From Cyanobacteriota bacterium (GTDB taxonomy: Bacteria; Acidobacteriota; Vicinamibacteria; Vicinamibacterales; UBA2999): a DNA stretch of 64,000 bases. Within the stretch, counting starts at the first letter, position 1. The number at the start of each line of letters is the position of its first letter. The notes under the pieces were generated by a model. It saw only the letters and a list, made by a program, of their open reading frames with translations, had not been told where the DNA came from and searched no databases. The stretch lies in assembly GCA_019752015.1 (NCBI GenBank), contig JAIEMQ010000015.1:140205-204204 (forward strand). The letters are read 5' to 3'. Both the position numbers and the translations under genes were made by a program. Below, in pieces: positions 5,411 to 58,433 of the stretch.

Positions 5411-6249
5411 TCCGGCTCGAGCTCGAAGCTGAGGTCCGCCGCGGGCGCCGAGTGCGTGAGCGCGCCAATCGAGACGTATTGCGCGCCCGTTGTCGCGAGC
5501 TCGGGAATGCGCTGCAGCGTGACGCCACCCGAGATCTCGATCGCGGCGCGGCCGTTGACGCGTTTCACCGCCTCGCGGATGTCGTAGGTCGTGAAGTTAT
5601 CCAGCAGGATTCTCGGCACGCCGGTCTTCAGCACTTCGTCGAGCTCCTGCAGGTTTTCGACTTCGACGACGACCGGCAGGCCGCTGCTCTCTTTCAGCGC
5701 CCGACTCGCCGCCGCGCCGACGCCACCGGCCAGGCGCTTGTGGTTGTCCTTGATCAAAATGCCGTCATCAAGGCGCAGCCGATGATTGGTCCCGCCGCCG
5801 CAGCGCACCGCGTATTTTTCGAGCGCGCGAAAGCCCGGCGTGGTCTTGCGGGTATCGAGAATGGTGATGCCGCCGCGCGCGGCGTCGACGAACTTCGCGG
5901 TCAGCGTGGCGATGCCGCACAGCCGCTGCAGGAAATTGAGCGCGGTTCGTTCTGCTTCGAGCAGCGCATGCGCGTCGCCGAACACGCTGGCGACGACCTC
6001 GCCCGGTTGGACGCGCGAGCCGTCGCCCCACTTCACCTCGAACACCGCTTTCGGATCGACCTGGCGGAACGTCTCGGCGGCCACATCAAGGCCGGCCACG
6101 ACGAGATCCGATTTCGCGATGATCGTCCCGCGCGCGCGAATGCCTCGCGCGACCGTCGCCATGCTGGTCGCATCGCCGCGGCCGCGATCTTCGGCCAGCG
6201 CCTGTCGAACGAGGTCGCGATAGTCCTCCGGCGCCAACGGCGACGGCAT
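5407..6249 (-). CDS. nadC: nicotinate-nucleotide diphosphorylase (carboxylating)
   Basis: QPRTase-like sequence (TRKTTPGFR, LDNF). ATG at 6249 was chosen because the longer ORF to 6318 would overlap the valS 3' end. Confidence 0.9.
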   Translation of the reverse strand: MPSPLAPEDYRDLVRQALAEDRGRGDATSMATVARGIRARGTIIAKSDLVVAGLDVAAETFRQVDPKAVFEVKWGDGSRVQPGEVVASVFGDAHALLEAERTALNFLQRLCGIATLTAKFVDAARGGITILDTRKTTPGFRALEKYAVRCGGGTNHRLRLDDGILIKDNHKRLAGGVGAAASRALKESSGLPVVVEVENLQELDEVLKTGVPRILLDNFTTYDIREAVKRVNGRAAIEISGGVTLQRIPELATTGAQYVSIGALTHSAPAADLSFELEPE

Positions 6250-6250
6250 G

Positions 6251-8872
6251 TTACGCCTTGTCCACCGTAGACGGGGCGGACTCCGCGGGTTTAAGCGTGA
6301 CTTCGACGGAGGTTTCACCGGCGCGGAGAATCAACGATTCAGATCTCGATGCCGCTTTCAGGTCGCGCTCGATCAGCTTCAGGCATGCGATCGCATCATC
6401 GGGCGCTTGATAGACCACTTCACGCACGGGCGTGCCGACCGACACCTTCTGGTCGGTCTTGCCTTTGCGGATCGCATTCAAGGCCTCGGTCGCGTGAACG
6501 ACGGCATTCGCCGATGCCTGGTCGGTGCCTGACACGCTGATGAGCTCGTCTCGCGTCGGCCACGTCGCGCGGTGGATCGATCCGGCATTGGTCCACGACC
6601 ACACTTCGTCGGTTACGAATACGAGATACGGCGCGAGCAGACGCAACAACACCGACAACGCCAGCCGCATTGCCGTCGATGCCGACGCCGCCGGCCCGGG
6701 ACCGAAGTCGCCGTAACGGCGTGACTTCGCCGCCTCGACGTAGTTGTCGCAGAAGTCCCAGAAGAACGACTCGACCTTGGCGAGCGCCTTTGCGTATTCG
6801 TATCGCTCCAGCTCCGCAGTCGCTTCATCCACGACGAGCGCGAGGTTCTGCAACATGCCGCGATCGAGCGGCTCGGTGACCGGGCCGTCCGGCTGATCCC
6901 CGGCCAGCACGAACTTCGACACGTTCAGGATTTTGATCGCCAGCTTGCGGCCGATTTTCATCTGGCCCGGGTCGAACGCCGTATCGACGCCGGGGCCGCC
7001 GCGCGCGGCCCAGTAGCGCACGCCGTCGGAGCCGTGCTCCTTCAACAGCGCCATCGGCGTCACGACGTTGCCCTTCGACTTCGACATCTTCTTGCGATCG
7101 GGATCGAGGATCCATCCGGAGATCGCCGCGTTGGTCCACGGCACCGAGTTGTTCTCGAAATGCGCGCGCACCACCGATGAGAACAGCCACGTGCGAATGA
7201 TGTCGTGCGCCTGCGGCCGCAGGTCCATCGGGAAGGTCCGCGAGAACACGTCGTCGTCCGACTCCCACTTGGTGACGATTTGCGGCGACACCGACGATGT
7301 GGCCCATGTGTCCATGACGTCCGGATCACCGGCGAAGCCGCCGGGCCTGCCGCGCTGGTCCTCGCGATAGCCGTCGGGCGCCTCGGTGGACGGATCGACC
7401 GGCAGCCGCGATTCATCCGGCACCATCAGGTTGGCGTAGTCAATGCTGCCGTCGGCGCGAATCGGATACCAGACCGGGAACGGCACGCCGAAGAAACGCT
7501 GTCGGCTGATGCACCAGTCGCCATTGAGGCCGTTGACCCAGTTCTCGAATCGCAGCCGCATGTGCTCCGGGTGCCAGCTGATCTCGCGGCCGCGCGCGAT
7601 GAACGCCTCGCGATGGTCCATCGTCTTGATGAACCACTGGCGGCTGGTCACGATCTCGAGCGGACGATCGCCCTTCTCGTAGAACTTCACCGCGTGGGTG
7701 ATCGGTTTCGGATCGCCCTGCAGATCGCCGCTCTCGCGCAGCAGCTCGACGATCTTCGTCTGCGCCTTCTTCGTGGAGAGCCCGGCGAGCTGGTCGTAGG
7801 CGGCCTGCGCCTTCGCGGCGTCCGCGGATTCCCAGCCGGCGGTTCCCCACGTCACCGGACCGAGTGTGCCATTGGTCTGCACGATTGCGCGCACCGGCAG
7901 GCGCAGCTCGCGCCACCACGTCACGTCGGTGGTGTCGCCGAAGGTGCAGATCATCGCGATGCCGCTGCCCTTTTCCGGATCGGCCAGCGCGTGCGCCTTG
8001 ATCGGCACGCGCGCGCCAAACAGCGGCGTGATCACATACGTATCGAATAGATGCTGGTATCGCGCATCATCAGGATGAGCGACCAGCGCGACACACGCCG
8101 GAATCAATTCGGGCCGCGTCGTTTCAATCGCCACCGGCTCCCGGTTCCCGGCTCCCGGCTCCCGGTAAAAATGAATCTTGTGATACGCGCCCGGTTGCTC
8201 ACGGTCTTCAAGCTCTGCCTGCGCGACGGCGGTCTTGAAATCCACATCCCACAACGTCGGCGCTTCAACCTGGTAGGCGAGCTTCTTCGCGAGGTGACGC
8301 AGGAACGTGATCTGCGACACGCGCTGGGCGTCCCTGCCAATCGTCGCGTAGGTCATCGACCAGTCGACCGACAGCCCGAGATAACGCCACAACTCTTCGA
8401 ACGCCTTTTCGTCCTCGATCGTCAGCTTCGTGCACAGCTCGATGAAGTTCGGGCGTGATACGGAGATCGGCTTGTCCGGTTTCTCGCCCCTCGACTCCGC
8501 TCGGGGCGACCCTGAGCCCGTCGAATGGGTCGGCGGCGTGAAGTTCGGGACGTACGGCAGCGACGGATCGCAGCGGACGCCGAAGTAGTTCTGCACGCGG
8601 CGCTCGGTCGGCAGGCCGTTGTCGTCCCATCCCATCGGATAGAACACTTCCTTGCCGCGCATGCGCTGGAAGCGCGCAATGAAATCGGTGTGCGTGAACG
8701 AGAAGACGTGACCGACGTGCAGCGAGCCGCTGACGGTCGGCGGCGGCGTGTCGATCGAGTAGATCTGCTGCCGCGACCTGGTGCGATCGAATCGATAGGT
8801 GCCGTCGCGCTCCCAGCGCGCGGCCAGAGCGTCTTCGAGGCCCTCTAACGCGGGCTTCTCGGGAACAGGCAT
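6251..8872 (-). CDS. valS: valine--tRNA ligase
   Basis: PPPTVSGSLHVGHV (HIGH) and KMSKSKGN motifs, 873 aa. Contains two repeat-derived in-frame insertions (see findings). Confidence 0.95.
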   Translation of the reverse strand: MPVPEKPALEGLEDALAARWERDGTYRFDRTRSRQQIYSIDTPPPTVSGSLHVGHVFSFTHTDFIARFQRMRGKEVFYPMGWDDNGLPTERRVQNYFGVRCDPSLPYVPNFTPPTHSTGSGSPRAESRGEKPDKPISVSRPNFIELCTKLTIEDEKAFEELWRYLGLSVDWSMTYATIGRDAQRVSQITFLRHLAKKLAYQVEAPTLWDVDFKTAVAQAELEDREQPGAYHKIHFYREPGAGNREPVAIETTRPELIPACVALVAHPDDARYQHLFDTYVITPLFGARVPIKAHALADPEKGSGIAMICTFGDTTDVTWWRELRLPVRAIVQTNGTLGPVTWGTAGWESADAAKAQAAYDQLAGLSTKKAQTKIVELLRESGDLQGDPKPITHAVKFYEKGDRPLEIVTSRQWFIKTMDHREAFIARGREISWHPEHMRLRFENWVNGLNGDWCISRQRFFGVPFPVWYPIRADGSIDYANLMVPDESRLPVDPSTEAPDGYREDQRGRPGGFAGDPDVMDTWATSSVSPQIVTKWESDDDVFSRTFPMDLRPQAHDIIRTWLFSSVVRAHFENNSVPWTNAAISGWILDPDRKKMSKSKGNVVTPMALLKEHGSDGVRYWAARGGPGVDTAFDPGQMKIGRKLAIKILNVSKFVLAGDQPDGPVTEPLDRGMLQNLALVVDEATAELERYEYAKALAKVESFFWDFCDNYVEAAKSRRYGDFGPGPAASASTAMRLALSVLLRLLAPYLVFVTDEVWSWTNAGSIHRATWPTRDELISVSGTDQASANAVVHATEALNAIRKGKTDQKVSVGTPVREVVYQAPDDAIACLKLIERDLKAASRSESLILRAGETSVEVTLKPAESAPSTVDKA
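8134..8165. repeat. CCGGYTC heptamer tandem array inside valS
   Basis: ccggctc ccggttc ccggctc ccggctc ccgg read directly. Translates to EPGAGNREP on the minus strand. Confidence 0.9.
8486..8528. repeat. 42-nt REP-like imperfect palindrome inside valS
   Basis: cccctcgactccgctcggggcgaccctgagcccgtcgaatggg. Near-identical copy at 38666..38707 and a half copy at 30476..30495. Confidence 0.85.
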
Positions 8873-8883
8873 CCCTTTATTAT

Positions 8884-8978
8884 GGAAGGCAAAAGGCAGA
8901 AGGCAAACGGCAAAAGCACTTCCACCCTTCCCTTCTGCCTTTCGCCTTCTGCCTTTCGCCTTATGCCTTGTGCCTTTG
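8884..8978. repeat. long imperfect palindrome built from GGCARAAG-type short units, overlapping the stop codon of 8961..11519
   Basis: Left arm ggaaggcaaaaggcagaaggcaaacggcaaaagcac. Right arm ccttctgcctttcgccttctgcctttcgcc is its approximate reverse complement. Confidence 0.8.
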
Positions 8979-11519
8979 TTTTATGCGATCGATTTCGTCG
9001 CGCACGAGGCGCTCGGAGGTATCGGAGACGACCGAGCGAACGTTGTCGCGGATCAAGCGTTCGGAGGTTTCGGCCACCACGCCGGGCACGGTGTCGCGCA
9101 CCATTCGCTCCGAAGTGGCGGCGACGACGCCGGGCACGGTGTTACCAACGAGCCGCTCCGACGCTTCAGCAACCGCTCCAGGAACGGTATCGCGTACCAG
9201 CCGCTCGGAGGTCTGGGTGACGATCGCGGGCGTGGCATCGCGCACCAGCCGCTCGGACGTTTCAGCAACGACGGCGGGGACGACTTCACGCACCATGCGC
9301 TCGGACGTTTCAGCGACCACCATGTTGACCGTGTCGGAGACGACGATCGCCACGGTATCGCGAACCAGCCTCTCGGACGTTTCCGAGACGACCGCGGGCA
9401 TGGTTTCGCGGATCAGGCGCTCGGACGCTTCCGCCACGGCCGACGACACGGCGTCTCGCACCAGCCGCTCGGACGTCGCGGGGACGTTGGTTCGCACCGC
9501 ATCGCCGACCAACCGCTCGGAGGCTTCGTGGACGATCGACTGGACACTGTCGCGAATCAGACGCTCGGATGCCTCGGGCACCACCGATTGCACGCTGTCG
9601 CGGATCAGCCGCTCGGACGCTTCAGGAACAATCGCCTGGATGCTGTCGCGGATCATTCGCTCCGATGTTTCGGGCACGACGAATTGAACGGTGTCGCGAA
9701 TCAACCGCTCGGACGCCTCCGGCACGACCGTCTGAATCTTGTCGAGAATCAGCCGTTCTGAGGCTTCGGGCACGACGGTCTGAACCGAATCGCGGATCAA
9801 CCGCTCCGATGTTTCCGGCACGATCGACTGGACGCTGTCGCGGACCAGCCGCTCCGACGTTTCCGCGACGACGCCCGGCACCGTCTCGCGCACGACGCGT
9901 TCGGACGTTTCGGCGGCGACCCCCGGAACGGTGTCACGCACCACGCGCTCGGAGGCTTCGGCGACGACGCCAGGCACCGTGTCGCGGATCACCCGCTCTG
10001 ACGTTTCGGCGACGACACCCGGAACCGCATCGCGAATCAAACGCTCCGACGTTTCGGCGACGACCGTGCGAACCGTCTCGCGCATTGTCGTCGTCATCGC
10101 GTCCTTGAGGATTGCGCCAAACGTGCTCGCGTTCAGCCGATCGGCCACACGCGTGGCGATCTGATCGAGCATGGCGTCGGTGATCTTCGGCTCGACGATC
10201 CTGATCTCCGGCGGCGGCGGTGCCGGCGGATGCGCGCGCTCGCCACGCTCGAATGCCAGCAATGCATCGAAGTCGTCGGCGACCCTGGTCTCGACGGGCG
10301 GCGCCGGCGGCGCAGCGGTCACGCGCCTGATCGGCGCAACGGTCACGGGCGGCACAATCGGCGCCACCGGTTTTGGCGGAGCGGCAACGGGCGGCGGCGC
10401 GACCGGCGCGCGTTTCGGCAGCTCGGTTTTCACCGGCGCGGGCGCGGGCGGAAGTGGCGCGGGCGGTGCCGGCGGCGCCTGCGCCGCGGCGGCCTTGATG
10501 TCCTCGAGGCCGAAATCGAAATCGCGATCGGTGGCCGCCGGCGCGATCGGTTCCGATTCAGGAAGCTCGACCTCGTGGATGCCCATTTCCTTCGCGAGCT
10601 GCGCCTGCTCGACCTGTCTCGCCGCGCGAGCCTTGTCGTCTTCCGCAAACCACTCGTCGTCGACTTCGAAGACGCCGCTGGTCGGCGGTTTCGGTGGCGC
10701 CGGCGGCGGCTGAATTTCCGGATCGCTCAGGTCTTCGGCAATCTCGCGGCGGCCGGCTTTGGCTTCCGCGCGCGCCTGGCTCTCGGCCGTGCCGAACCAG
10801 TCGTCATCGACTTCGAAGACGGGATTGCCGGTGGCGCTGCTCGCCGTCGGTGGCGTGCGTCCCGGCGATCGCGGATCGATGGCGCCCCCTGCCTGCCCGA
10901 TGGGTCCGGAAGGATTGCGATTGGGCTTGGACGCAGGCGTCCGGCCCGAGAGCTGTTGATCGAGGGAATCAAACGCCTCGTCGAGCGTATCGAGATAGTC
11001 GGCAGGCTTCGGCGCGGACTCTTCGACGGAGGACACCGGCGCGGGCCGCGCGGACGTGGCTGGGCGCGCTGGCGCGGCCGCGGGGAGCTTCCTCTCCGCG
11101 GGACCGTCCACTGGCGTCACCGGACGGCCGGCCGAAGCCGGTTTCTCGTCGGATTTCATGCCCAGCAGTTCTTTCACCCGGCTTCTCACCACCGTCGGCT
11201 CGACCGGCTTCTCGAGCACGCCGTTCGCGCCGCTCGAGGCCAGACGCGCCTCGTCCACCGTCTCGAACGCGCCGGTCAGCAGCAGCACCGGCACCCGCCG
11301 CAACTCCGCCTTGCCGCGCATGAACTTGGCGAGGTCGTAGCCGCTAATCTGCGGCAACGTCGTGCCCGCGAGCACGATGTCGGGTTGATGCGCCGCCATC
11401 TTCTCCATCGCCTGCTGTCCGTCGCCGACGGAGATGACCTTGATCGGCGTTTCAGCGAACGTCAACGCAATCACCCGCTGGACTGTGATGCTGTCGTCCG
11501 CCAGGAGAAGGGTGCGCAT
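8961..11519 (-). CDS. receiver (CheY-like) domain protein with a Pro-rich linker and about 22 C-terminal 16-residue repeats
   Basis: N-terminus MRTLLLADDS...LLLTG...EKP has the REC pattern. The C-terminal 364 aa are E[TA]SER[LVM][IV]RD[TS]V..[VI]V. units. Confidence 0.85.
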   Translation of the reverse strand: MRTLLLADDSITVQRVIALTFAETPIKVISVGDGQQAMEKMAAHQPDIVLAGTTLPQISGYDLAKFMRGKAELRRVPVLLLTGAFETVDEARLASSGANGVLEKPVEPTVVRSRVKELLGMKSDEKPASAGRPVTPVDGPAERKLPAAAPARPATSARPAPVSSVEESAPKPADYLDTLDEAFDSLDQQLSGRTPASKPNRNPSGPIGQAGGAIDPRSPGRTPPTASSATGNPVFEVDDDWFGTAESQARAEAKAGRREIAEDLSDPEIQPPPAPPKPPTSGVFEVDDEWFAEDDKARAARQVEQAQLAKEMGIHEVELPESEPIAPAATDRDFDFGLEDIKAAAAQAPPAPPAPLPPAPAPVKTELPKRAPVAPPPVAAPPKPVAPIVPPVTVAPIRRVTAAPPAPPVETRVADDFDALLAFERGERAHPPAPPPPEIRIVEPKITDAMLDQIATRVADRLNASTFGAILKDAMTTTMRETVRTVVAETSERLIRDAVPGVVAETSERVIRDTVPGVVAEASERVVRDTVPGVAAETSERVVRETVPGVVAETSERLVRDSVQSIVPETSERLIRDSVQTVVPEASERLILDKIQTVVPEASERLIRDTVQFVVPETSERMIRDSIQAIVPEASERLIRDSVQSVVPEASERLIRDSVQSIVHEASERLVGDAVRTNVPATSERLVRDAVSSAVAEASERLIRETMPAVVSETSERLVRDTVAIVVSDTVNMVVAETSERMVREVVPAVVAETSERLVRDATPAIVTQTSERLVRDTVPGAVAEASERLVGNTVPGVVAATSERMVRDTVPGVVAETSERLIRDNVRSVVSDTSERLVRDEIDRIKQRHKA
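8964..10055 (-). repeat. in-frame 48-nt tandem coding repeat (about 22 units)
   Basis: Units counted in the translated ORF. The same periodicity shows in antisense ORFs 8799..9761 and 8968..9687. Confidence 0.9.
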
Positions 11520-13681: not shown

Positions 13682-13922
13682 ATCGCCTCTAATTATAAGA
13701 CCCGCCTACGCTTTCCACATTTCCAAAGCTTCGGCCAGGCAGGCTCCCTCCGCTTTCCGTCCGCGGCGCCGCGTCATTCGATGTTCCCAGAACGATACCA
13801 AAAAGTCATGAAACGGATAGGAAATTGACATTGGCTACCGAAGCCGATTACTTTTGAATGTTTGCCCTTGCCGCCACCAGGGCCGCAGAAGGCACAGAAA
13901 TCTCTTTGACGTCGAGGACTTG

Positions 13923-15177: not shown

Positions 15178-15279
15178 CAAACATACACAGAAACACGGAA
15201 GCACAGAAACACGGAAATCTTTTTTGGAAAAACCAGGAGGCTTCGGTGCTTCAGTGTTTCCGTGCTTCTGTGTATGTTT
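15178..15279. terminator. long imperfect hairpin between convergent gdh and the VWA gene
   Basis: caaacatacacagaaacacggaagcacagaaacacggaaa pairs with gtgcttcagtgtttccgtgcttctgtgtatgttt. T6/A5 in the loop region. Confidence 0.7.
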
Positions 15280-18599: not shown

Positions 18600-19250
18600 A
18601 TGGCGGCACTGCTGTTGATGGCAGCACCCGTATCCGCTCAGCCCGCAATCGAATCCGTCAAGACCGAGCTCCGGGCCTTCATCACCGAGCTCAACGCGGC
18701 GCTCGCCGCGCGCGATCGAGAGGCGATCGAACGGCTTTACGCCGCCGAATTCCTCTACATCCACACCAACGGTCCACCGACCGATCGCGCAGCGCATATT
18801 GCCGAAACAATGGCCACGAAACCGCGCGGCGCCATGCCGATTCCCTCGCTCGACAACCTCATCGTCGTCGGCGACGTCGCGATCCTTCGAGATCGCGTTG
18901 CGGATCGCTTCGGCACAACGATTTACGCGAAGCGCAATGGAAGATGGCAGGTGCTGCAGCTGCAAGGGACGGCGCTGCCGTCGACGATTCCGGCGGCGGC
19001 GGTCTCGCCCGAGCTCCTCGCCAAATATGCGGGCCGGTATCAGCAGGACAACGACCTGGTCGTCATCTTCACAGTCGAGGGCGCTAACCTGAATCTACAG
19101 GTGGAAGGGCGGCAGAAGTTCGTGCTGACGACCGTATCGGCGACGGAGTTCGCGATGCCTGGCGACACCGCGCGGATTCGATTTGCGCCCGACGGCAGCT
19201 ACGAGTTCCATCGCGCCAATCAGCCGATCCGTAAAGGCAAGAAGCAGTAG
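18600..19250 (+). CDS. secreted hypothetical protein (NTF2/SnoaL-like N-terminal half)
   Basis: Signal peptide MAALLLMAAPVSAQP. The listed ORF 17910..19250 is a read-through shadow of the ACAD region. ATG 18600 (or GTG 18585). Confidence 0.65.
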   Translation: MAALLLMAAPVSAQPAIESVKTELRAFITELNAALAARDREAIERLYAAEFLYIHTNGPPTDRAAHIAETMATKPRGAMPIPSLDNLIVVGDVAILRDRVADRFGTTIYAKRNGRWQVLQLQGTALPSTIPAAAVSPELLAKYAGRYQQDNDLVVIFTVEGANLNLQVEGRQKFVLTTVSATEFAMPGDTARIRFAPDGSYEFHRANQPIRKGKKQ

Positions 19251-19262
19251 CTTCGCGCGGAG

Positions 19263-19567
19263 CGCACTCACTCCGGAGGGCTGTCAACTCGCTGCTCGCG
19301 TCTTCCTGCGCTGCACAGCTTGCGGCGAGTTTGTCAGTGATGACTCCGTCGCTCGGTTAGCCGGTCATCGTTCGACTCCGCTCTCGCTCCAGACGCCTGT
19401 CAACTCGCCGCTCGCGCCTGACTTCGCAGCGCGGCTCGCAGCGAGGTTGTCGGTAAAAAACCTGTCCGGCGGGCGCCCCGGATTGCCTTCAGTCATCATC
19501 TAGCTGCTCAGGCTTCCGCCCGCCTCTCGGCGACTTCCGCTCGAGCTCCGTCCAACGATGACCGGCC
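19263..19567. repeat. left arm of a large inverted repeat (composite of hairpin units)
   Basis: 19263..19303 is the exact reverse complement of 20430..20470. Similarity continues with one extra internal unit in this arm. Confidence 0.85.
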
Positions 19568-19640
19568 TTCTCGCTCTTCCCCATCGAGCGCCACCATCGA
19601 TAACGCTAATACCCGTTTATTGGTAGACTTATGGCCTGTC

Positions 19641-21383: not shown

Positions 21384-21473
21384 AAGGTGCCTTAGGTGCC
21401 TAAGTGCCTAAGGTGCCTTTGGTGCCGGTGCCACGTGCACTCAGGCACTCAGGCACCCAGGCACTCAGGCACC

Positions 21474-24070: not shown

Positions 24071-24148
24071 GGGGCTTGGGACTTGGGGCTTGGGACTTGG
24101 GGCTTGGGGTTTCTCAAGACCTCAAGACCTCGAGACCTCAAGACCTCA
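24071..24148. repeat. two adjacent tandem arrays: GGRCTTG heptamers then ACCTCRAG octamers, between convergent genes
   Basis: ggggcttgggacttggggcttgggacttggggcttgggg followed by tctcaagacctcaagacctcgagacctcaagacctca. Confidence 0.85.
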
Positions 24149-28554: not shown

Positions 28555-29766
28555 GTGCCTCTGACCCGCGGCAGCAGGGCGGCGCTCGTCCTCGTCCTCA
28601 TCGCGGGCCTGTTCTTCTTCGTCGCGCTTCCCTATCTCGATGCGCTGGGTTTCATCATTCGGGCGGCCGATCTTCCCGGCGCCGCGGCGACGGCCGCGGC
28701 CTGGCGCGCGAGCCCGTTCACACGCGATGCCGAGTTCACCGTGCCGACGCGCGGCGGCGTGATCCCGGCGCGGTTTTTCCGGCCGGCCCGCCAGACGCGG
28801 CGCACGCTGATCATGATCCCGGGCGTGCATCGCGACGGCATCAATGAATCACGACTCGTCGGCCTCGCGGAAGATCTCGCGGCCACCGGCTACGGCGTGT
28901 TGACGATCGCCGCTCCGGACCTGCAGCGCTTCAAGATCACGCCCGCCGTCACGGACACGATCGAGGATGCGGTCCGCTGGGCGAGCGAACAGCCGCAGTA
29001 CCGCACCGACGGCAAGATCGGCATTGTCGGCATCAGCTTCTCGGGCGGCCTCTCGATCGTCGCCGCCGGCCGCGACTCGATCAAGGATCGCGTCGCATTC
29101 GTGATGTCGTTCGGCGGCCACGGCGATCTTGCCCGCGCCATGCATTACCTCACCACCGGCCAGGTGCTGGGCAATCTCGAAACAGCCAAAGCGAGCTCCG
29201 CGGTGCTGGGCGCGGATCACGTCGGCGTGCATCCGCCGCACGATTACGGTCTCGCGGTCACGCTGTTGAACCTCGCCGATCGCGTGGTGCCGGCCGATCA
29301 AGTCGGACCGTTGTCGAAAGGCATCGACGACTTCCTGCTCGCCTCGTCGCTCGCGGTCACCGATCCAGCGAAGGCGATTCCCGTTTTCGAAGCGGCGAAG
29401 AAATACCAGGAGGCGCTGCCGGAGCCGTCGCGGACCTACATGCAATACGTGAACGATCGCGCCGTCGACAAGCTCGGACCAATCCTCTCGCCTGTTGCCG
29501 ATGCCCTGGCCACGCACCCGGCGATGCCGTCGCTCTCACCGGAGCGCGCCACGCCGCCGATCGCGCCGATCTTTCTGCTGCACGGCGTCGACGACAACGT
29601 CATTCCTTCGGTTGAGACCGTGCTGCTCGCGGAACATCTCAAGGGCAAGGCGCGCGTCGAAGGCCTGCTGAGCGGACTGATTACGCACGCTGAAGTCAAT
29701 CGCACCGCAACCTCGACCGAAGTTTGGCGGCTCGCGCAGTTCTGGCGCGACATAATGAAGCAGTGA
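28555..29766 (+). CDS. membrane-anchored alpha/beta-hydrolase-fold protein
   Basis: N-terminal TM segment, nucleophile-elbow-like VGISFSGG, LLHGVDDNVIP, ITHAE. Confidence 0.65.
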   Translation: MPLTRGSRAALVLVLIAGLFFFVALPYLDALGFIIRAADLPGAAATAAAWRASPFTRDAEFTVPTRGGVIPARFFRPARQTRRTLIMIPGVHRDGINESRLVGLAEDLAATGYGVLTIAAPDLQRFKITPAVTDTIEDAVRWASEQPQYRTDGKIGIVGISFSGGLSIVAAGRDSIKDRVAFVMSFGGHGDLARAMHYLTTGQVLGNLETAKASSAVLGADHVGVHPPHDYGLAVTLLNLADRVVPADQVGPLSKGIDDFLLASSLAVTDPAKAIPVFEAAKKYQEALPEPSRTYMQYVNDRAVDKLGPILSPVADALATHPAMPSLSPERATPPIAPIFLLHGVDDNVIPSVETVLLAEHLKGKARVEGLLSGLITHAEVNRTATSTEVWRLAQFWRDIMKQ

Positions 29767-30509
29767 ACGTCCGCCTGCAGAAGATCTTGTCGACCGCCGG
29801 CGTCGCATCACGACGCGCCTCCGAGCAGATGATCCTCGACGGCCGCGTCATGGTGAACGGCGAAACGGTGCGCGAGCTCGGCACGAAAGCCGATCCCGCA
29901 AAAGACGCCATCAAGGTCGACGGCCGCCGCATCAAGACAGAGGTCGCGCAGCGCTACATCGTCCTTTACAAGCCGAAGGGCTATGTGACGACGAGAAGCG
30001 ATCCGGAAGGCCGCCGCACGGTGATGGATCTGATCGGCGAAGGCGCCTACATCTATCCGGTCGGCCGCCTCGATTACGACTCCGAAGGCCTGCTGCTGAT
30101 GATGACCGACGGCGATCTCGCCGCGCGCCTCATGCATCCGCGTCATGAAGTGGACAAGGTCTACGAAGTGATCGTGATGGGCACGCCCGATCCGCGGAGC
30201 ATCGAGAAGCTGCGCAAGGGCGTTCACATCGAGGGCGGACGCACGTCGCCCGCCGACGTGCACGTCGGCACCACGGTGAAAGGCGCCAGGCCGACCACGC
30301 TCCTGACCATCACCATCCGCGAAGGGCGGAACCGCCAGATCCGGAAGATGTGCAGCTCAGTGGGCCTGCCCGTGCGGGATTTGCGCCGGATTCGCATGGG
30401 TCCCATCGGCCTGGGCCGGCTGAAACCGGGACAGTGGCGCGATCTTACGCCAGAGGAAGTCCGCCGCCTGAAGCGCCCTTCGACTCCGCTCAGGGCGCGT
30501 GACGTCTAG
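29763..30509 (+). CDS. rluB: pseudouridine synthase, RluB/RsuA family
   Basis: S4 domain RLQKILSTAGVASRR, catalytic GRLDYDSEGLLL. GTG 29763 overlaps the upstream TGA (GTGA). Confidence 0.85.
   Translation: MNVRLQKILSTAGVASRRASEQMILDGRVMVNGETVRELGTKADPAKDAIKVDGRRIKTEVAQRYIVLYKPKGYVTTRSDPEGRRTVMDLIGEGAYIYPVGRLDYDSEGLLLMMTDGDLAARLMHPRHEVDKVYEVIVMGTPDPRSIEKLRKGVHIEGGRTSPADVHVGTTVKGARPTTLLTITIREGRNRQIRKMCSSVGLPVRDLRRIRMGPIGLGRLKPGQWRDLTPEEVRRLKRPSTPLRARDV
30476..30507. repeat. half copy of the REP-like element at the rluB 3' end
   Basis: cccttcgactccgctcaggg matches one arm of the 8486 and 38666 elements. Encodes the terminal PSTPLRARDV. Confidence 0.6.
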
Positions 30510-36824: not shown

Positions 36825-37946
36825 ATGATCCAGCCCACCTACCCCGCCGCCAATCTTGTCGCTGACGCGGTGCAGGCGCATTTTGCCCGCCATATTGCGG
36901 CCGCGCGGCCGACAGATTTGGTGAATGGCGCGGATTCGCCGCCGCCGCTGGCGATCGCCTCGATCATCGACGCCGCGTTCTGGGCCAGCCTGCGACGAGA
37001 AGAAGGACAGGCGCCGAAGATTTCGCTCGCGTTTCTTCCTCCTGAACATGCGAAGCATCCGCTGCTGTTCGCGCAGAAGCTGCCGCTCGCGCCCGCGGTG
37101 TTGTCGAAAGTGGCGCCGGCCGTCGAGCGCCCCGGCATTCATCTCGGCGTGTGGCGCAACGGCGAGGAACTTTTCGTGTGGGGCACGACGCGCGAAGTCC
37201 CCGCCTTCTGTCTCGTCGTCGAAGTCGTCGCCTCCGGCTTGATCGTCGTCAAGCATCGCTTCGAGCAGTTCGGCAAGTTCGTGAACGTGGCGGTGCTCGA
37301 AGGCGATCAGATCAAGATCGTGGACGAGGGCGTCGGACGGGTGATGCCCGACTGCCCGCACGTGGTGTCGTCGCTCGCGGGCGCGATCGATCACAAGTCC
37401 GCGTCGGGCGTCACGGCGGTGCTGATTCTCCTGGCGACGTCGATGCGGCAACACGGCCGCGGCGGCGCGCTGCTCGTGGTGCCGACGGGCACCGACGCGT
37501 GGCGCGACTCGATCGTGACGCCGGTGTTGTACGCGGTCGATCCGCCGTACTCGGAGCTGGCGCAGCTGATGAAACTGAAGAACCCGGACCCCGACGACCT
37601 GAAGCGCGCGGTGGATGCGATCGCGGGGCTGACGGCGGTCGATGGCGCGACCATCATCAACGATCGCTACGACCTGCTGGCGTTTGGCGCGAAGATCTCG
37701 CGGCGGCGCGGCAGCACCACGGTCGAGCAGGTCAATGTGACGGAGCCGGTCGAAGGCAGCATCTCGACCATCGCAACACCGGCGCAGCTCGGCGGGACGC
37801 GCCACTTTTCAGCCGCGCAGTTCGTCCACGATCAGCGCGACGCGATGGCGCTCGTCGCGTCGCAGGACGGGCGCTTCACGATCTTCAAGTGGTCGCCGCG
37901 CGAGGCGTTCGTCCACGCGCACCGCGTGGACGCGCTGTTACTCTGA
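36825..37946 (+). CDS. DAC (DisA_N / diadenylate-cyclase) fold protein with an unrecognised N-terminal half
   Basis: GGALLVVP, AVDGATIIN (DGA motif), GGTRHFSAAQFV...DAMALVASQDGRFTIF (compare GTRHRAA...VVSEE.G.IS of CdaA/DisA). Confidence 0.7.
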   Translation: MIQPTYPAANLVADAVQAHFARHIAAARPTDLVNGADSPPPLAIASIIDAAFWASLRREEGQAPKISLAFLPPEHAKHPLLFAQKLPLAPAVLSKVAPAVERPGIHLGVWRNGEELFVWGTTREVPAFCLVVEVVASGLIVVKHRFEQFGKFVNVAVLEGDQIKIVDEGVGRVMPDCPHVVSSLAGAIDHKSASGVTAVLILLATSMRQHGRGGALLVVPTGTDAWRDSIVTPVLYAVDPPYSELAQLMKLKNPDPDDLKRAVDAIAGLTAVDGATIINDRYDLLAFGAKISRRRGSTTVEQVNVTEPVEGSISTIATPAQLGGTRHFSAAQFVHDQRDAMALVASQDGRFTIFKWSPREAFVHAHRVDALLL

Positions 37947-38615
37947 CATCCCTTCGGGGACGTCGCCTTCTTCCAGCGGCAACATTTCTTCCGGTACCGG
38001 CCGTTCCATCAGGACCGGCGGCGGCTCGAATCCAAGCTGCTGCGCCATGTCTTCGATCTTCGGCAGGTCGGTGAGGTCGTTGAGGCCGAAGCGAATCAGG
38101 AATTCCTTGGTCGTCCCGTAGAGGAACGGGCGGCCGATCACGTTCTTGCGGCCGACGATCTTGATCAGATGCCGTTCGAGGAGAGTCGACAACACGCCCG
38201 ACGTGTTGACGCTGCGGATCTCGCCAATCTCCGCCGCGGTCACCGGCTGCTTATACGCAATCACGGACAGGGTTTCGAGCGCCGCCACCGAGAGCTTGCT
38301 CGCGGAGCGCTCGTGGAACAGCCGCCGCACCCACTCGTGATATTCGGGCCGCGTCGTGATCTGGTAACCGCCGGCGACTTCGGCAATGTGCAGGCCGCCG
38401 CGATCGACGTAATCCGCCTTGAGCGCCTCGAGCGCCGCCTTGACGTCTTCCTTGGGCTCGTCGTTCAGCAGCCGGTTCAGCAGGCGCGGCGTGATCGGAT
38501 CCGGCGACGCAAACACCAGCGCCTCAATCACCGCCTTGAGCTGCGCCAACTCCATCCTGGGGACGGGTGCGTCGGGTGCATCGGGTGCGTCAGGTGCCGT
38601 GGTCTCGTCGCTCAT
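37938..38615 (-). CDS. scpB: SMC-Scp complex subunit ScpB
   Basis: ALVFAS..P, EVAGGYQ, YKQPVT..EI..IRGV-like motifs. The N-terminus carries APD x3 from a 9-nt repeat. Confidence 0.9.
   Translation of the reverse strand: MSDETTAPDAPDAPDAPVPRMELAQLKAVIEALVFASPDPITPRLLNRLLNDEPKEDVKAALEALKADYVDRGGLHIAEVAGGYQITTRPEYHEWVRRLFHERSASKLSVAALETLSVIAYKQPVTAAEIGEIRSVNTSGVLSTLLERHLIKIVGRKNVIGRPFLYGTTKEFLIRFGLNDLTDLPKIEDMAQQLGFEPPPVLMERPVPEEMLPLEEGDVPEGMSE
38565..38600. repeat. 9-nt tandem repeat (GGGTGCRTC x4) in the scpB 5' end
   Basis: gggtgcgtc gggtgcatc gggtgcgtc aggtgccgt. Encodes APDAPDAPDAP. Confidence 0.85.
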
Positions 38616-39541
38616 TTCTTGTCGTCCTCTGTGCCGGTTCCCGGCTCCCGGCTCCCGGCTGCCGGCCCCTCGACTTCGCTCGGGGCCGCCCTGAGCTTGT
38701 CGAAGGGCGGATGATGTGCTTTGTATTCATCCTCAGGGTCGTGAATCGGGTGCGGCGCGTCCGTTGGGCGGGCGCGTTTGTAAACGCGGATCGCGCCGAC
38801 GCCGCCCTGCTGGAACACGCGAATCAGCTTCAAGCGGATCATTTCCAGCAGCGCCAGGAACGTGACGATCATGCCGGTGCGGGTGGCATCGCCCTCGAAG
38901 AGCTCCTCGAAGCCGCACGCCTCGGTTTCCGACAGCCGCTCGAGCATCTGCTCGATGCGCGCCTCGATCGAGATCTCCTCGGGCGGCAGCGGCACCGGCG
39001 GCCGCTCGCGGGCGCGCTCGAGGACCTGCTTGAACGCGGACAACAGGCTGAACAGGTCGACTTCGATCTCCGGCTCGTAATCGCCGCCGGCAATTTCCTC
39101 GATGCGCGAATCGGGGCGGGCCCACTGCGCGCTGCGCAGCGTTTCCTTGTCGTGCAGCATCTCCGCCGCGGCCTTGAACTTCTGGTGCTCGAGCAGGCGG
39201 CGCACCAGCGCGTCGCGCGGATCCTCTTCCTCCAGCGGATCGCCCGCCGCCGTCTCCGGCCGCGGCAGCAGCATCTTGCTCTTGATGTGGATCAGCGTCG
39301 CCGCCATCACCAGGAATTCGCTGGCGACGTCGAGATTGAGCTCCTGCATCAGGTCGAGGTACTCGAGGTATTGCCGGGTGATGACGGAGATCTGGATGTC
39401 GTAGACGTTCATCTGGTTCCTCTTGATCAGATGAACGAGCAGATCGAGCGGGCCTTCGAAGGCCTGCACCTTGATCTGGATCGACTCGAGCTGCGACTCG
39501 AAGAGGTCTTCGCCGCCGGGGTTCTGAGGAGTGTCGGCCAT
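38612..39541 (-). CDS. scpA: segregation and condensation protein A (kleisin)
   Basis: FEGPLDLLVHLI, typical ScpA length plus about 45 aa of repeat-encoded C-terminal tail. ATGA overlap with scpB. Confidence 0.9.
   Translation of the reverse strand: MADTPQNPGGEDLFESQLESIQIKVQAFEGPLDLLVHLIKRNQMNVYDIQISVITRQYLEYLDLMQELNLDVASEFLVMAATLIHIKSKMLLPRPETAAGDPLEEEDPRDALVRRLLEHQKFKAAAEMLHDKETLRSAQWARPDSRIEEIAGGDYEPEIEVDLFSLLSAFKQVLERARERPPVPLPPEEISIEARIEQMLERLSETEACGFEELFEGDATRTGMIVTFLALLEMIRLKLIRVFQQGGVGAIRVYKRARPTDAPHPIHDPEDEYKAHHPPFDKLRAAPSEVEGPAAGSREPGTGTEDDKK
38634..38707. repeat. CCGGYTC heptamer array immediately followed by a 42-nt REP-like palindrome, inside the scpA 3' end
   Basis: ccggttcccggctcccggctcccggctgccgg + cccctcgacttcgctcggggccgccctgagcttgtcgaaggg. 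Confidence 0.88.
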
Positions 39542-41252: not shown

Positions 41253-42614
41253 CCGCCATCGTCGTCCGGTAGTTGACAATGCAGGCGCGCAGGGCGAAGC
41301 GGCCGTTGATGGCCGCATTTGAGAGATACGAATCGCCGTCTCGCTGGACGTCGACCATCAATCTCCTGTTGAAGTCGTCGTCTCCGCCCCGGTAGCGGAA
41401 GCAGACAATGCTGAGCGGCGCCGGCGCCAGCAGTTCGAAGTCGCTGCTCTGCTCGACCAGCGCGGCGAGATGCCTGGCCACCGCGATGTTGCTGTCGATG
41501 GCCTCCTGGACGGCGCGCGCGCCGTGAATCTTCAGCAGGAACCAGATCTTCAGCGCGCGAAAGCGGCGCGACAGCTCGGGGCCGTGATCCCAATACGCGA
41601 ACTCCGACATGTCCTTGTCGGCGACGACGTCAATGTAGCCGGCGCCGGTCGAGAACGCGCCTTGCATCGCGGCGGCATCACGAACGAGCAGACACCCGGC
41701 GTCCGTGGGCGCGAAGAGCCACTTGTGGGGATCGAGCGACATTGAATCGACGCGCGCCAACGCCTTCATGGCGCCGCCGACGTGCGTCGATCGCGCGGCG
41801 AGCGCTCATACGAACCGTCAACGTGCAGCCACAGCTTGTGTGCCGCGCAGACATCCGCGATCGCATCGAGCGGATCGATCGCGCCGGTATTCACGTCACC
41901 GGCCGTGGCGACGACGCAGACTGGGTGGAAGCCGGCGGCACGATCGGCTTTGATCCATGATGACAGCGCGACGGCGTCCATCTGGAAGGCGTTGTTGACG
42001 GGGAGCGTCTCGATCGCGTCTTTGCCGATGCCGAGCATCGATGCGGCCTTGCCGATCGACATGTGCGTCATCGACGAGGTGTAGATGCGGGGCTTACCCG
42101 GCAGCGCGCCGACGCCGCGCTGATTGAGATCGATGTCCGTGCTCGCGCGCAGCGCCACGGCGAGCCCAGCGAAGTTCGCCATCGAGCCGCCGCTCATGAG
42201 GACACCGATGCCTTGCGGTCCGAAACCGACCATCTCCTTCAGCCACTCGATGACCTGGTGCTCGATCGTGGTCGGCGCCGGCGCCGAGCGCCATGACGTG
42301 ACGTTCTGATTGATCGCGGACGCGATCAGATCGCCCATGACGCCGGCGAAGCTCGCGGATGACTGCACGTAGCCGAACATGCGCGGATGACCGTTGTGGC
42401 GGCCGTGATCGGCAATGCGCTGAACATCCGCCATCACGCTGGTCAGGTCTTCGGGCTGAACCGGCAGTGACCCCGCCAGCAGCGAGGACAGATCCTTGGC
42501 GCTGACAGTTGGATAAATCGGCAGCTGGGATTGTGCGGCGAAATACTTCAGGGCCCAGTCAAGGGCGGCCCGGCCAAGCTGCGCGCGCTGGGCCTCGCTC
42601 AGCTCGATGCTCAT
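41200..42614 (-). pseudogene. pyridoxal-dependent decarboxylase interrupted by a 1-nt frameshift
   Basis: ORF 41766..42614 ends ...LWLHVDGSY then goes out of frame. ORF 41200..41769 continues ...SMSLDPHKW. Adding one G at tatg|agcgc (plus-strand about 41807) gives VDGSYGALAARSTHVGGAMKALARVDSMSLDPHKW. Confidence 0.8.
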
Positions 42615-44494
42615 GAATTCGCGGCGAAGTGTGCAATGACGGCATCGGCGACTTTTGTCCCAACGACCCGGGCAAGCTCTTCACGCGTCGCTCTTCGCAC
42701 ACCAGAAAGGCTGCCAAATGCCGTCAGCAGAGTCTTGCGGCGGCGCAGGCCGATGCCAGGCACGACATCGAGCTCCGATTGCAGATCCCGTTTACGCCGG
42801 GACTGACGATGGAACGTGATCGCAAACCGATGGGCCTCGTCGCGAATCCGTTGCAGCAGCCGCAGCGCGTTGCCGTGCGTGTCGAGCGCAAGGGGCTCCA
42901 TGCTGTCGCGCGTGAACACGAGCTCCTCTTTCTTCGCAAGACCGATCGCAACGAGATTCGACAAACCGATCGACTCGAGCGCGGCGTACGCGGCGTTCAA
43001 CTGTCCTTTGCCGCCGTCGATGACGATGAGATCCGGGAATGGGCCACCATTCTCGAGCACCTTCGAATATCGCCGGCGCACCACCTGCTCCATTGCCGCG
43101 AAATCATCGAGGAATCTCGCTTCGCTCGTATCGGGGCTTGGGACTTGGGGCTTGGGGCTTGGGAAGTCTTTCCTAATCTTGAATTTTCGGTACTCCGAGG
43201 GACGCATGCGGCCCTCTTCGCACACCACCATCGACGCGACCGTTTCGCTGCCCTGGATGGTCGAGATGTCGAAGCAATCGATGCGCCGCGGCAGCTTCGG
43301 CAATCGCAGCGCGGCCTGCAGTGATTCGAGGGCATCGTAATTGGCGGTGGCATTCGTATCGAAACGCTGTCGATAGCCGAGCGCGGCGTTGCGATGCGCG
43401 AGCTCCATCATGCCCTTCTTGGTGCCGCGCTGTGGCACGACGATGCGAACTTTCCGATCCACCTTCTGACCCAGCCACTCCTCGAGCACTTGCGGGTCCG
43501 CCGGCGCGACCGGCACGTGGATCTCCGGCGGCGGCTCGTGCTCCAGGTAGAACTGTTGAATCGCAGCTTCGATGATGCCAGCCTCGGGCTCTTGATTCTG
43601 AGCCATCCGTGCCATCTGTGGCCCGCTTTCGGCGGCCCACATCAGCTCGATGCGCTCGATCACGCGCCCGCCGCGAACGATGAACACCTGCACGACCGCG
43701 CCGCTCGCGCCGGCCTTGACGCCGAACACGTCTCTGTCGCCGAGCTCCGCCGACGCCATTTTCTGTTGGCGCTCGCGAAGCGTCTCGACCGTGCGCATTG
43801 CATCCCGCAGCTGCGCCGCTTCCTCGTAGCGCTGATCGCCCGAGGCTTCGAGCATGCGCCCGCGCAGCTGATCGGCGAGCTCGTCGTTGCGGCCTTCGAG
43901 AAACAGCTTCGTATCCGCAACCGCCACCGCGTAGCGCTCTTCGCTGCAGATCGACACGACACACGGCGCCAGGCAGCGCTTGATGTCGTATTCGAGGCAC
44001 GGCCGTTGACGCGTGCCGGTGATCACCTCGTTGCACGAGCGGATGCCAAACACCTTGTGCGTCAGCGACATCGTCCGGCGCGCGAATTTCGCCGGCAGGA
44101 ACGGCCCCGCATACATGTTGCCGTCGCGCTCCACCGATCGGGCCACCAGGACGCGCGGGAACTGCTCCGTCGTCGTCAGCTGCAGGTAGGGATAATTCTT
44201 GTCGTCGCGCAGCAGGATGTTGTAGCGCGGCGATCGCTGCTTGATGACGTTGTTTTCGAGCGCCAGCGCTTCCACCACCGAATCGGTGACGATCACCTCG
44301 ATGCGCGTCGCCTCGTCCAGCAACGCGTCGTGGCGCGGGCTCATCCCATAGGCATTCAGGTACGAGCGCGTGCGATCGCGCAACGATCGGGCCTTGCCGA
44401 CGTAAAGCGTCTCGCCTTTCGCGTTGTAGTAGATGTAGATGCCCGGCTGCTCAGGCAGCCGCGCCATCTGCTCTCGTAGATCCTGAATCGCCAC
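42611..44494 (-). CDS. uvrC: excinuclease ABC subunit C
   Basis: GIY-YIG start (GIYIYYN...LYVGKA), C-terminal HhH. Contains the GGGGCTT repeat insert. Confidence 0.95.
   Translation of the reverse strand: MAIQDLREQMARLPEQPGIYIYYNAKGETLYVGKARSLRDRTRSYLNAYGMSPRHDALLDEATRIEVIVTDSVVEALALENNVIKQRSPRYNILLRDDKNYPYLQLTTTEQFPRVLVARSVERDGNMYAGPFLPAKFARRTMSLTHKVFGIRSCNEVITGTRQRPCLEYDIKRCLAPCVVSICSEERYAVAVADTKLFLEGRNDELADQLRGRMLEASGDQRYEEAAQLRDAMRTVETLRERQQKMASAELGDRDVFGVKAGASGAVVQVFIVRGGRVIERIELMWAAESGPQMARMAQNQEPEAGIIEAAIQQFYLEHEPPPEIHVPVAPADPQVLEEWLGQKVDRKVRIVVPQRGTKKGMMELAHRNAALGYRQRFDTNATANYDALESLQAALRLPKLPRRIDCFDISTIQGSETVASMVVCEEGRMRPSEYRKFKIRKDFPSPKPQVPSPDTSEARFLDDFAAMEQVVRRRYSKVLENGGPFPDLIVIDGGKGQLNAAYAALESIGLSNLVAIGLAKKEELVFTRDSMEPLALDTHGNALRLLQRIRDEAHRFAITFHRQSRRKRDLQSELDVVPGIGLRRRKTLLTAFGSLSGVRRATREELARVVGTKVADAVIAHFAANS
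43133..43163. repeat. GGRCTTG heptamer array inside uvrC
   Basis: ggggcttgggacttggggcttggggcttggg. Encodes PSPKPQVPSP on the minus strand. Same repeat as 24071 and 48751. Confidence 0.9.
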
Positions 44495-48750: not shown

Positions 48751-48799
48751 GGGCTTGGGGCTTGGGGCTTGGGGCTTGGGGCTTGGGGCTTGGGGCTTG
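48751..48799. repeat. GGGGCTT heptamer x7 (G-quadruplex-type motif)
   Basis: gggcttggggcttggggcttggggcttggggcttggggcttggggcttg, between the efp stop and the tdk start. Confidence 0.92.
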
Positions 48800-58383: not shown

Positions 58384-58433
58384 GGTGCCTGGGTGCCTGG
58401 GTGCCGGGGTGCCGGGGTGCCGGGGTGCCGGGG
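58384..58433. repeat. GGTGCCKG octamer x6
   Basis: ggtgcctg ggtgcctg ggtgccgg ggtgccgg ggtgccgg ggtgccgg gg. Ends at the stop of 58434..59549. Confidence 0.9.

Follow-up and report, generated by a model that had tools for sequence, protein, structure and literature searches.

How does short repetitive DNA come to lie, in frame, within conserved genes? We met this question in a 64-kb stretch of DNA (hereafter the window; G+C 61-68%) in which valS, uvrC, uvrA, scpA and scpB all carry repeat segments inside open reading frames (ORFs). A first-pass annotation had proposed that repeat elements were inserted in frame into these five genes, and that sequences found elsewhere as intergenic repeats are tolerated as surface loops or tails of the encoded proteins. 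It also called the genes essential, a description that does not hold for uvrA and uvrC, which are conserved repair genes and not strictly essential. Our analysis suggests that two repeat families, a 45-nt palindromic doublet and tandem arrays of a 7-nt unit, are most likely selfish or neutral DNA that lands or grows in genes, and that the cases observed are probably the survivors of purifying selection. The host genes, all defined as ORFs and their translations, are the following.

6251..8872, minus strand: valS (valine-tRNA ligase), 873 aa, host of two repeat-derived segments
37938..38615, minus strand: scpB
38612..39541, minus strand: scpA, with residues 254-309, beyond the Pfam domain, forming a repeat-encoded tail
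42611..44494, minus strand: uvrC
53729..56635, minus strand: uvrA

The data set comprised 1.51 Mb, made up of the window, 80 species-level genome loci around scpA and eight valS loci. Gene calls in the related loci were crude (a codon log-odds model), and counts of arrays or copies within coding sequences (CDS) are approximate. The ValS of the window is 100% identical to P0001, a protein from a public metagenome-assembled genome (MAG); it has 8000 homologues and can be aligned to the T. thermophilus ValRS structure 1GAX. UvrC of the window is likewise 100% identical to a public MAG protein, and the SMC_ScpA domain of Pfam covers residues 38-253 of ScpA. A chance origin of the repeats was ruled out by shuffle tests. 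Misassembly is an unlikely source of the intragenic repeats and was discounted, as independent assemblies (L081, L082, L085, L086, L173) have these arrays and this element in identical positions.

The first family is represented in valS by a single discrete insertion, delimited by comparing empty with filled sites at the DNA level and by a census of hairpins.

8486..8530, minus strand: 45-nt palindromic doublet inserted in valS

The doublet amounts to 15 codons and is translated as THSTGSGSPRAESRG. The annotation had seen an element resembling the repetitive extragenic palindromes (REPs) here and had read it correctly, although the net insertion is 45 nt and not 43. Two inverted hairpins (8484..8509 and 8507..8532) with an arm of 3 nt common to both make up the element, with stems of 6-7 bp and conserved 12-nt loops (TCGACNNNGCTC). 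Alignment of 120 close orthologues, whose identity to the window's ValS is 81-92%, showed that 23 have the 15-residue segment and 97 do not. The DNA of eight orthologous loci includes the empty site, CCGCCG directly followed by GAGAAG, in L081 and L088. The filled state was found at two positions 9 nt apart, with the same orientation and frame at both: site A, CCGCCG^GAGAAR, right behind Pro-Pro (the window, L082, L084 and L086), and site B, GAGAAGGCC^GAGAAG, behind Glu-Lys-Ala/Pro (L083 and L085). Site-A copies have the stem GCCCC/GGGGC and the site-B DNA copies of L083 and L085 have GTCCC/GGGAC, while four further site-B proteins (P0039, P0054, P0057, P0112) imply, at the protein level, the GCCCC/GGGGC form. 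Placed on a neighbour-joining (NJ) tree, the three insertion states of ValS require at least 18 state changes, which would fit repeated gain and loss of the doublet.

At the level of the protein, the variable amino-acid positions of the insert coincide with the unconstrained loop bases, and translation across the junctions gives peptides such as FTPPTHSTGSGSPR and FYREPGAGNREPVAIETTR. Against 1GAX, residues 95-152 of the query face residues 93-119 of the chain without alignment, and the doublet lies in this part of ValS. An AlphaFold2 model of ValS built with 33 close homologues was too poor for loop mapping (mean pLDDT 48.8), and structure alignments were used in its place.

Copies of the doublet were also sought in metagenome contigs by an exact scan on its conserved positions. 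The pattern was found in at least 120 contigs with a G+C of 0.36-0.72; among the matches listed, 109 contigs had 55% G+C or more and 11 had 36-50%. Covariation of the stems was measured in a gapless alignment of 112 distinct metagenomic copies among the matches listed, in which the loops are invariant by construction. Within these 112 copies, 94.7% of stem cells were paired, against 81.5% in shuffles (none of 500 as high), and a shift of the partner strand by one column reduced pairing to ~50%. Changes on both sides were seen in all seven pairs of stem 1 and in the outer three pairs of stem 2. G-U pairs were scarce in the matches listed (stem 1 has 14 such cells and 160 double changes), which suggests that the palindrome is constrained on both DNA strands rather than as an RNA structure. 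The invariant columns of the same listed copies were TCGAC, GCTC, CC, TGAGC and CGAA, and neither end of the doublet in the 112-copy alignment bore a terminal GTAG or CGTC. Many metagenomic doublets were chained to additional hairpins of the same kind; complementarity of the flanks was at background level, giving no sign of an outer third stem closing the doublet. A search of the window against Rfam returned no family above threshold, with only chance-level miRNA and snoRNA matches at both elements. Carriage by phages was considered and rejected, as there was one doublet match among 2.9 million viral contigs.

Insertion into genes is not peculiar to valS. Among the matches listed, 37 of 122 metagenomic copies (~30%) lie inside ORFs with good coding scores on both sides, and 19 of the 37 use the valS frame, DPSTGSGSPRAxSRG, where one in five would be expected (p = 2e-5). 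Direct reading of the sequence shows five of the six frames of the doublet to be without a stop, so that the bias is toward the hydrophilic Ser/Gly/Pro/Arg frame and not away from stops. The metagenomic hosts include a Ser/Thr kinase (Pkinase), a PQQ dehydrogenase, an acyl-CoA dehydrogenase, LptF/G and citrate synthase, and in these proteins the Pfam match spans the insert. Two further members of the family occur in the window.

38663..38710, minus strand: second hairpin doublet, in the scpA tail, in another frame than the valS copy and read PFDKLRAAPSEVEG
30473..30498, plus strand: single hairpin GCGCCCT TCGACTCCGCTC AGGGCGC, in the last residues of an S4/pseudouridine synthase protein (29724..30509)

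The scpA doublet adjoins a heptamer array, CCGGCTC in 4.7 copies at 38634..38666, and the description of the ScpA tail as a heptamer array plus a hairpin element was borne out. Folded as DNA, this copy has a z-score of -3.2 to -3.7 and its minimum-energy form is one long hairpin; it was found in the window only and in none of 80 related scpA loci. Members of the hairpin family occupy 3 sites in the 64-kb window, and the related syntenic loci (1.5 Mb) hold 24 hairpins where 5 are expected, at about eight independent loci. With both window copies as queries, nhmmer found few others in 1.39 Mb of related loci, and the doublet is thus not abundant in these syntenic regions. Intergenic copies were seen in related genomes and metagenomes, and not in the window.

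In-frame palindromic repeats are a known kind of event, and what is new here is the host and the element. REPs are short G+C-rich stem-loops, often arranged as inverted dimers, which lie mostly between convergent or co-directional genes and in a minority of cases inside ORFs (PMC3733652); Di Nocera et al. (2013; PMC3733652) recorded such intragenic copies, in other phyla, in genes for tRNA synthetases and pseudouridine synthases and in uvrA and uvrB. The present element resembles REPs, BIMEs and REPINs in its paired palindromic stem-loops, set as an inverted pair, and in its window hosts, valS, scpA and the tail of a pseudouridine synthase gene. The arm of 3 nt that its two inverted hairpins share and the folding of the scpA copy into one long hairpin recall REPIN and BIME organisation, and the chaining of many metagenomic doublets with further hairpins recalls BIMEs. 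REP super-families are, however, defined by a terminal GTAG or CGTC tetranucleotide (PMC3733652), a tag that the doublet is without, its conserved part being the 12-nt loop; nor was a RAYT seen among ten window proteins compared with Pfam, a comparison not aimed at transposases. The doublet is REP/REPIN-like in anatomy, and we have not filed it in the GTAG/CGTC super-families because the tag is absent and no transposase was identified. The Rickettsia palindromic elements (RPEs) of Ogata et al. (2000) are, according to PMC10969869, a palindromic family lying in frame in many unrelated conserved genes whose folds tolerate the added peptide. Insertion in frame at permissive positions is common to both, here in valS, scpA and the metagenomic kinase, citrate synthase and other genes. 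The RPEs are ~100-150 bp long and belong to Rickettsia, whereas the present element is 45 nt long with an acidobacterial host, occurs among the matches listed in contigs of G+C 0.36-0.72, and has conserved loops and covarying stems. RPE-4 and RPE-6 bear the CGTC tag, in contrast to the doublet.

The second family consists of tandem heptamer arrays. Three lie inside genes of the window, and their identification by Tandem Repeats Finder (TRF) and by translation upheld the earlier readings of the valS and uvrC arrays.

8134..8165, minus strand: valS array of 4.6 copies, unit CCGGCTC (GAGCCGG on the coding strand), read EPGAGNREP
38634..38666, minus strand: scpA array of 4.7 copies, unit CCGGYTC (that of valS), read PAAGSREPGTG
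43133..43163, minus strand: uvrC array of 4.4 copies, unit GGGGCTT (AAGCCCC on the coding strand), read SPKPQVPSP

A doubled heptamer pattern occurs six times in the window, against 0.17 expected, and none of 100 shuffles reached that number. The ValS heptamer site is a short loop without an array in 54 of the 120 orthologues; of the others, 37 hold a GAGCCGG-type array and 29 one of the GATCRGG type. The loops are 7, 10, 13 or 20 residues long, and the step from 13 to 20, which corresponds to three heptamers, occurs between neighbours on the tree. Relative to 1GAX, the segment lengthens the turn of a beta-hairpin (YEVEGGGFIEIAT) in the editing domain. The repeat region of the ScpA tail is translated as PFDKLRAAPSEVEGPAAGSREPGTG, and beyond KAHHP this tail is hypervariable in the 80 loci, some of which lack an array while others have arrays of one or the other unit, or expanded ones. 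The uvrC array falls in a loop of the C-terminal endonuclease domain ahead of the DD[YF] motif, where alignment with T. maritima UvrC (2NRT) leaves a 17-residue gap just ahead of DDY. The segment from EYRKFKIK to FLDDFAAM is 5 residues long in four UvrC orthologues and 9-36 in the rest, the long segments being assorted heptamer- or octamer-encoded sequence such as QGSGIGDQGSG, PQDLKTLRPQDLKTL, SPKPQVPSP, RPSGQQAIRPSG and many others; in L013, L048 and L050 a complete inverted array pair lies in frame within UvrC. Orthologous sites hold different units in proteins that are ~90% identical, and only in-frame array states were seen across orthologues. The orthologue alignments of ValS, UvrC and ScpA show these segments to be variable repeat DNA, not conserved protein sequence, and support the proposal of in-frame insertion.

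The repeats of uvrA and scpB are of a different kind. They lie, with a matching sequence elsewhere in the window, as follows.

56028..56087, minus strand: 30-nt tandem duplication in uvrA, read PSVPSAALAN / ESAPSVALAN, in a hypervariable linker
13877..13899, plus strand: 23-mer identical to uvrA 56059..56081, 25 nt upstream of the gdh ATG and window-specific
38564..38597, minus strand: 9-nt repeat of 3.8 copies in scpB (TRF), in the N-terminal linker, read APDAPDAPDAP

The uvrA duplication, its intergenic 23-mer and the scpB APD repeat were all present as the first-pass annotation had them, and every repeat segment proved to lie inside an open frame. The two uvrA copies occupy 56029..56056 and 56059..56086. 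In every orthologue the stretch of UvrA that links LGFDLPV to NLRRKGFGRLL is hypervariable, with the 30-nt unit present once, twice or three to four times, and on alignment with the B. stearothermophilus UvrA structure 2R6F residues 157-199 of the query are unaligned against residues 171-183 of the chain. The uvrA, uvrC and valS sites all fall in gaps or unaligned stretches against 2R6F, 2NRT and 1GAX, in keeping with the view of tolerated loops and tails. In scpB the MSDE start is conserved and overlaps the stop codon of scpA (ATGA); the linker that leads to PRMELxQLK is ~5 to ~60 residues long. Both cases qualify the insertion reading: the uvrA segment is a duplication inside a linker that is variable everywhere, and the APD repeat, whose unit is triplet-compatible, is an in-situ repeat of an N-terminal linker that itself varies.

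Some additional observations concern these same genes. In L007, a locus of another MAG, a second variable loop of UvrC contains a 33-mer (5772..5804, CCAGGGCCGCAGAAGGCGCAGAAGGCTCAGAAG) that is nearly identical to the window uvrA repeat; its translation there, PRAAEGAEGSED, comes from the opposite strand to the one used in uvrA. The window's uvrA and gdh leader and the uvrC of another genome have in common a composite 23-33-mer, CCAGGGCC and then CAGAAGGCN repeats, which occurs in both coding senses. In other lineages, the same variable sites of UvrA (P0132, P0136), of UvrC (P0349) and of the ScpA tail of L025 hold a different, recurrent cassette, TFAQSATADKSAALG, FARGATADKSVALEK, TSTYAKASADKQ or AAEATADNEG, which looks like another dispersed repeat family read in frame. 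In L053 and L066 the scpA frame continues into scpB sequence without a stop, either as a true fusion or through a frameshift error where the junction is rich in repeats.

Across the 1.51 Mb, TRF arrays of at least three copies and at least 80% matches numbered 235, of which 143 have period 7, against 7 with period 6, 23 with period 8 and 30 with period 9. Outside the approximate CDS calls there were 5.2 arrays per 10 kb, and within CDS the figure fell to 0.33. The arrays outside CDS were found between convergent genes more often than expected (34 against 19) and between divergent genes less often (8 against 25; p = 7e-6). The 143 period-7 arrays comprise 74 distinct units, and the units are genome-specific: pairs of arrays more than 500 nt apart had the same unit in 17.3% of cases within a locus and in 1.0% between loci (Fisher p = 8e-25). 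An array of the complementary unit occurs within 200 nt of 59 of the 143 (41%), compared with a control rate of 1.4%. The spacers of these inverted pairs are 6-80 nt long and mutually unrelated; being short, they would allow many arrays to form long hairpins with periodic arms. The doublet was rejected as the centre of inverted array pairs (0 of 19 pairs), and the surroundings of the arrays showed neither a conserved flank nor a target motif. Three intergenic examples lie in the window.

24071..24109, no strand assigned: GGGGCTT/GGGACTT, 5.6 copies (the uvrC unit; TRF), its GGGACTT variant common with the uvrC array
48751..48799, no strand assigned: GGGCTTG, 7 copies (the uvrC unit), between the thymidine kinase and EF-P genes
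8886..8977, no strand assigned: inverted pair AAGGCAA (4.4 copies) then CCTTTTG (6.7 copies), just upstream of valS, in a hairpin-forming arrangement

The claim that the sequences inside genes also serve as intergenic repeats of the window holds only for the GGGGCTT unit (24071..24109 and 48751..48799), and fails for the hairpin doublet. Separate window arrays also have internal variants in common, GGGACTT in those at 24071 and 43133 and CCGGTTC in those at 8134 and 38634.

Two known kinds of repeat invite comparison with these arrays. The STRRs, short tandemly repeated heptanucleotides, were reportedly described in cyanobacteria by Mazel et al. in 1990. They are dispersed 7-nt arrays with lineage-specific units such as CCCCAGT, TTGGTCA and CAACAGT, and we know of no function or mechanism for them. 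Dispersed tandem 7-nt arrays, 143 in 1.51 Mb, are what the present genomes have in common with them. The differences are the Acidobacteriota host, the 41% of arrays in inverted pairs, the 74 units, and the arrays in frame within conserved enzymes; CCCCAGT is the unit in only 2 of the 143. Contingency loci of Haemophilus, Neisseria and others carry non-triplet repeats in dispensable surface or restriction genes, where they act as on/off switches. Here too, non-triplet tandem repeats stand in CDS and a slip of one unit shifts the frame, yet the arrays are short, they sit in housekeeping genes, and all states seen among orthologues are in frame. The behaviour of the heptamer arrays is new in so far as we found no description of it; a search for papers on heptanucleotide or tandem repeats in Acidobacteria or Vicinamibacter returned none. 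As to the host itself, the MAG record from which P0001 derives is labelled 'Cyanobacteria bacterium', and some relatives among L001-L080 are labelled Acidimicrobiia, cyanobacterium or Bifidobacteriaceae. These labels are probably wrong, nearly all labelled close homologues being Vicinamibacterales or Acidobacteriota.

The process that we favour would run as follows. A REP/REPIN-like doublet of 45 nt would behave as a mobile or copied element, and its insertion into a surface loop or tail would merely add a short peptide, because five of its frames are free of stops and its length is 15 codons; the Ser/Gly/Pro/Arg-rich frame would be the one most often retained. The 7-nt arrays, of some 4-5 copies, would spread within a genome with genome-specific units, often as inverted pairs able to form long hairpins and mostly downstream of genes. 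Insertions and expansions may happen anywhere, and those in genes would survive only in permissive loops, linkers and tails when stop-free and a multiple of three in length, after which the copy number of an intragenic array would change in steps of three units. We infer the mobility of the doublet from its distribution only, and have reasoned in the same manner to the selective filter and to a lack of function of the inserted peptides.

Several points weigh against this account. No transposase or other mobilising enzyme was identified in the ten window proteins compared with Pfam, a comparison that included no search aimed at transposases. The scattered distribution of the doublet in ValS could stem from recombination among related populations or from poor resolution of the tree; the figure of at least 18 changes could be inflated in the same ways, and a single ancient insertion followed by losses could stand in place of repeated insertion. 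Pairing is kept within CDS and both stem variants occur at site B, which could reflect selection on structure, so that the element would not be pure junk. Lastly, the repeated use of exactly the same loops in most genomes exceeds what random insertion followed by a filter predicts.

Period 7, units common to distant loci and the re-occupation of the same loops by different units go beyond passive slippage, and leave room for an active copying or converting mechanism, possible but unproven. Such a mechanism, dedicated and genome-specific, might rest on a polymerase or reverse transcriptase that copies a template, on a recombinase that targets hairpins, or on biased gene conversion between arrays. 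It would place the heptamer proper to each genome at sites that are structured or prone to pausing, the same loops of uvrC, valS and scpA among them. It would account for the dominance of period 7 (143 of 235 arrays), for units that are genome-specific over loci more than 500 nt apart (17.3% against 1.0%), for different units at orthologous sites of ~90% identical proteins, for the internal variants common to separate window arrays, and for the presence of the composite 23-33-mer in uvrA, the gdh leader and another genome's uvrC in both coding senses. We nonetheless regard it as unlikely: no candidate enzyme was seen among the ten window proteins compared with Pfam, no conserved flank or target motif surrounds the arrays, ordinary slippage with an occasional ectopic conversion could leave the same pattern, and some arrays are clearly old and vertically inherited, the SPKPQxPSP type occurring in UvrC orthologues that span 81-90% identity. 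That the Vicinamibacterales at large have an active process writing or converting hairpin-forming, genome-specific 7-nt arrays, fixed loops of uvrC, valS and scpA included, seems to us similarly improbable. If it were true, the arrays would have been left not by passive slippage but by an undescribed system that writes repeats from a template or through recombination, and this system might also account for the cyanobacterial STRR arrays.

We consider it decidedly unlikely that the segments are ordinary low-complexity linkers grown in place by replication slippage, with no insertion at all. The linkers of uvrA and of the scpB N-terminus are hypervariable and repeat-rich in every orthologue, their 9- and 30-nt units are triplet-compatible as expected of coding repeats arising in situ, and ValS loops change by three-unit steps. 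Slippage does not, however, explain a discrete 45-nt doublet with sharp boundaries, an empty site and more than 100 copies elsewhere; heptamer units are not triplet-compatible and the same units are also intergenic in the same genome; and even the uvrA repeat has an identical 23-mer at a non-coding site. Least probable of all, and in our view very unlikely, is that intragenic hairpins and arrays are kept for an action at the DNA or RNA level (as pause sites, in mRNA stability or processing, or as frameshift-prone dosage switches): although stem pairing is kept in CDS with variable residues at unconstrained loop bases, arrays outside genes prefer 3' ends as functional REPs do (PMC3733652) and DNA repair genes are recurrent hosts in other phyla, most orthologues are without the insertions, units and lengths vary freely at one site, the near-absence of G-U pairs speaks against RNA structure, and a one-unit slip in valS would be lethal, not regulatory.

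The window contains other repeats as well. Intergenic octamer arrays occur at 58384..58434 (GGTGCCGG, 6.4 copies), 21437..21472 (GCACTCAG, 4.5 copies) and 24113..24148 (CTCAAGAC, 4.5 copies). The GGTGCCGG array has four-G runs at 4-nt spacing, a motif of the G-quadruplex type, and the CTCAAGAC unit is the source of PQDLKTLR in UvrC of other genomes. Between gdh and the next gene, which are convergent, 16-nt tandem duplications at 15186..15216 and 15242..15273 have roughly complementary units and form a long repeat-built hairpin, possibly a terminator. Direct repeats of 76 nt with 78% identity (19263..19338 and 19379..19454, 116 nt from start to start) lie in a gene-poor stretch at ~18966..19619. 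On the minus strand, 8961..11519 encodes an 852-aa protein with an N-terminal response-regulator receiver domain followed by ~15 tandem 48-nt (16-residue) repeats at 8997..10132; its orthologues in the valS loci have 280-717 residues, indicating a highly variable number of repeats.

The reading that we prefer, of two repeat families landing or growing in genes and probably filtered there by purifying selection, bears on abundant, mostly uncultured soil bacteria. Cassettes such as DPSTGSGSPRAxSRG, EPGAGNR, DQGSGIG and SPKPQxPSP in conserved enzymes affect annotation, alignments and domain models in these organisms, and the insertions constitute a natural map of permissive sites in ValRS, UvrC, UvrA and ScpA. 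With its conserved loops, covarying stems and Watson-Crick-only pairing, the doublet is a well-defined target for finding the enzyme that mobilises it. The strict period of 7, the genome-specific units, the inverted pairs and the re-occupied loops provide a testable handle on the origin of such arrays.

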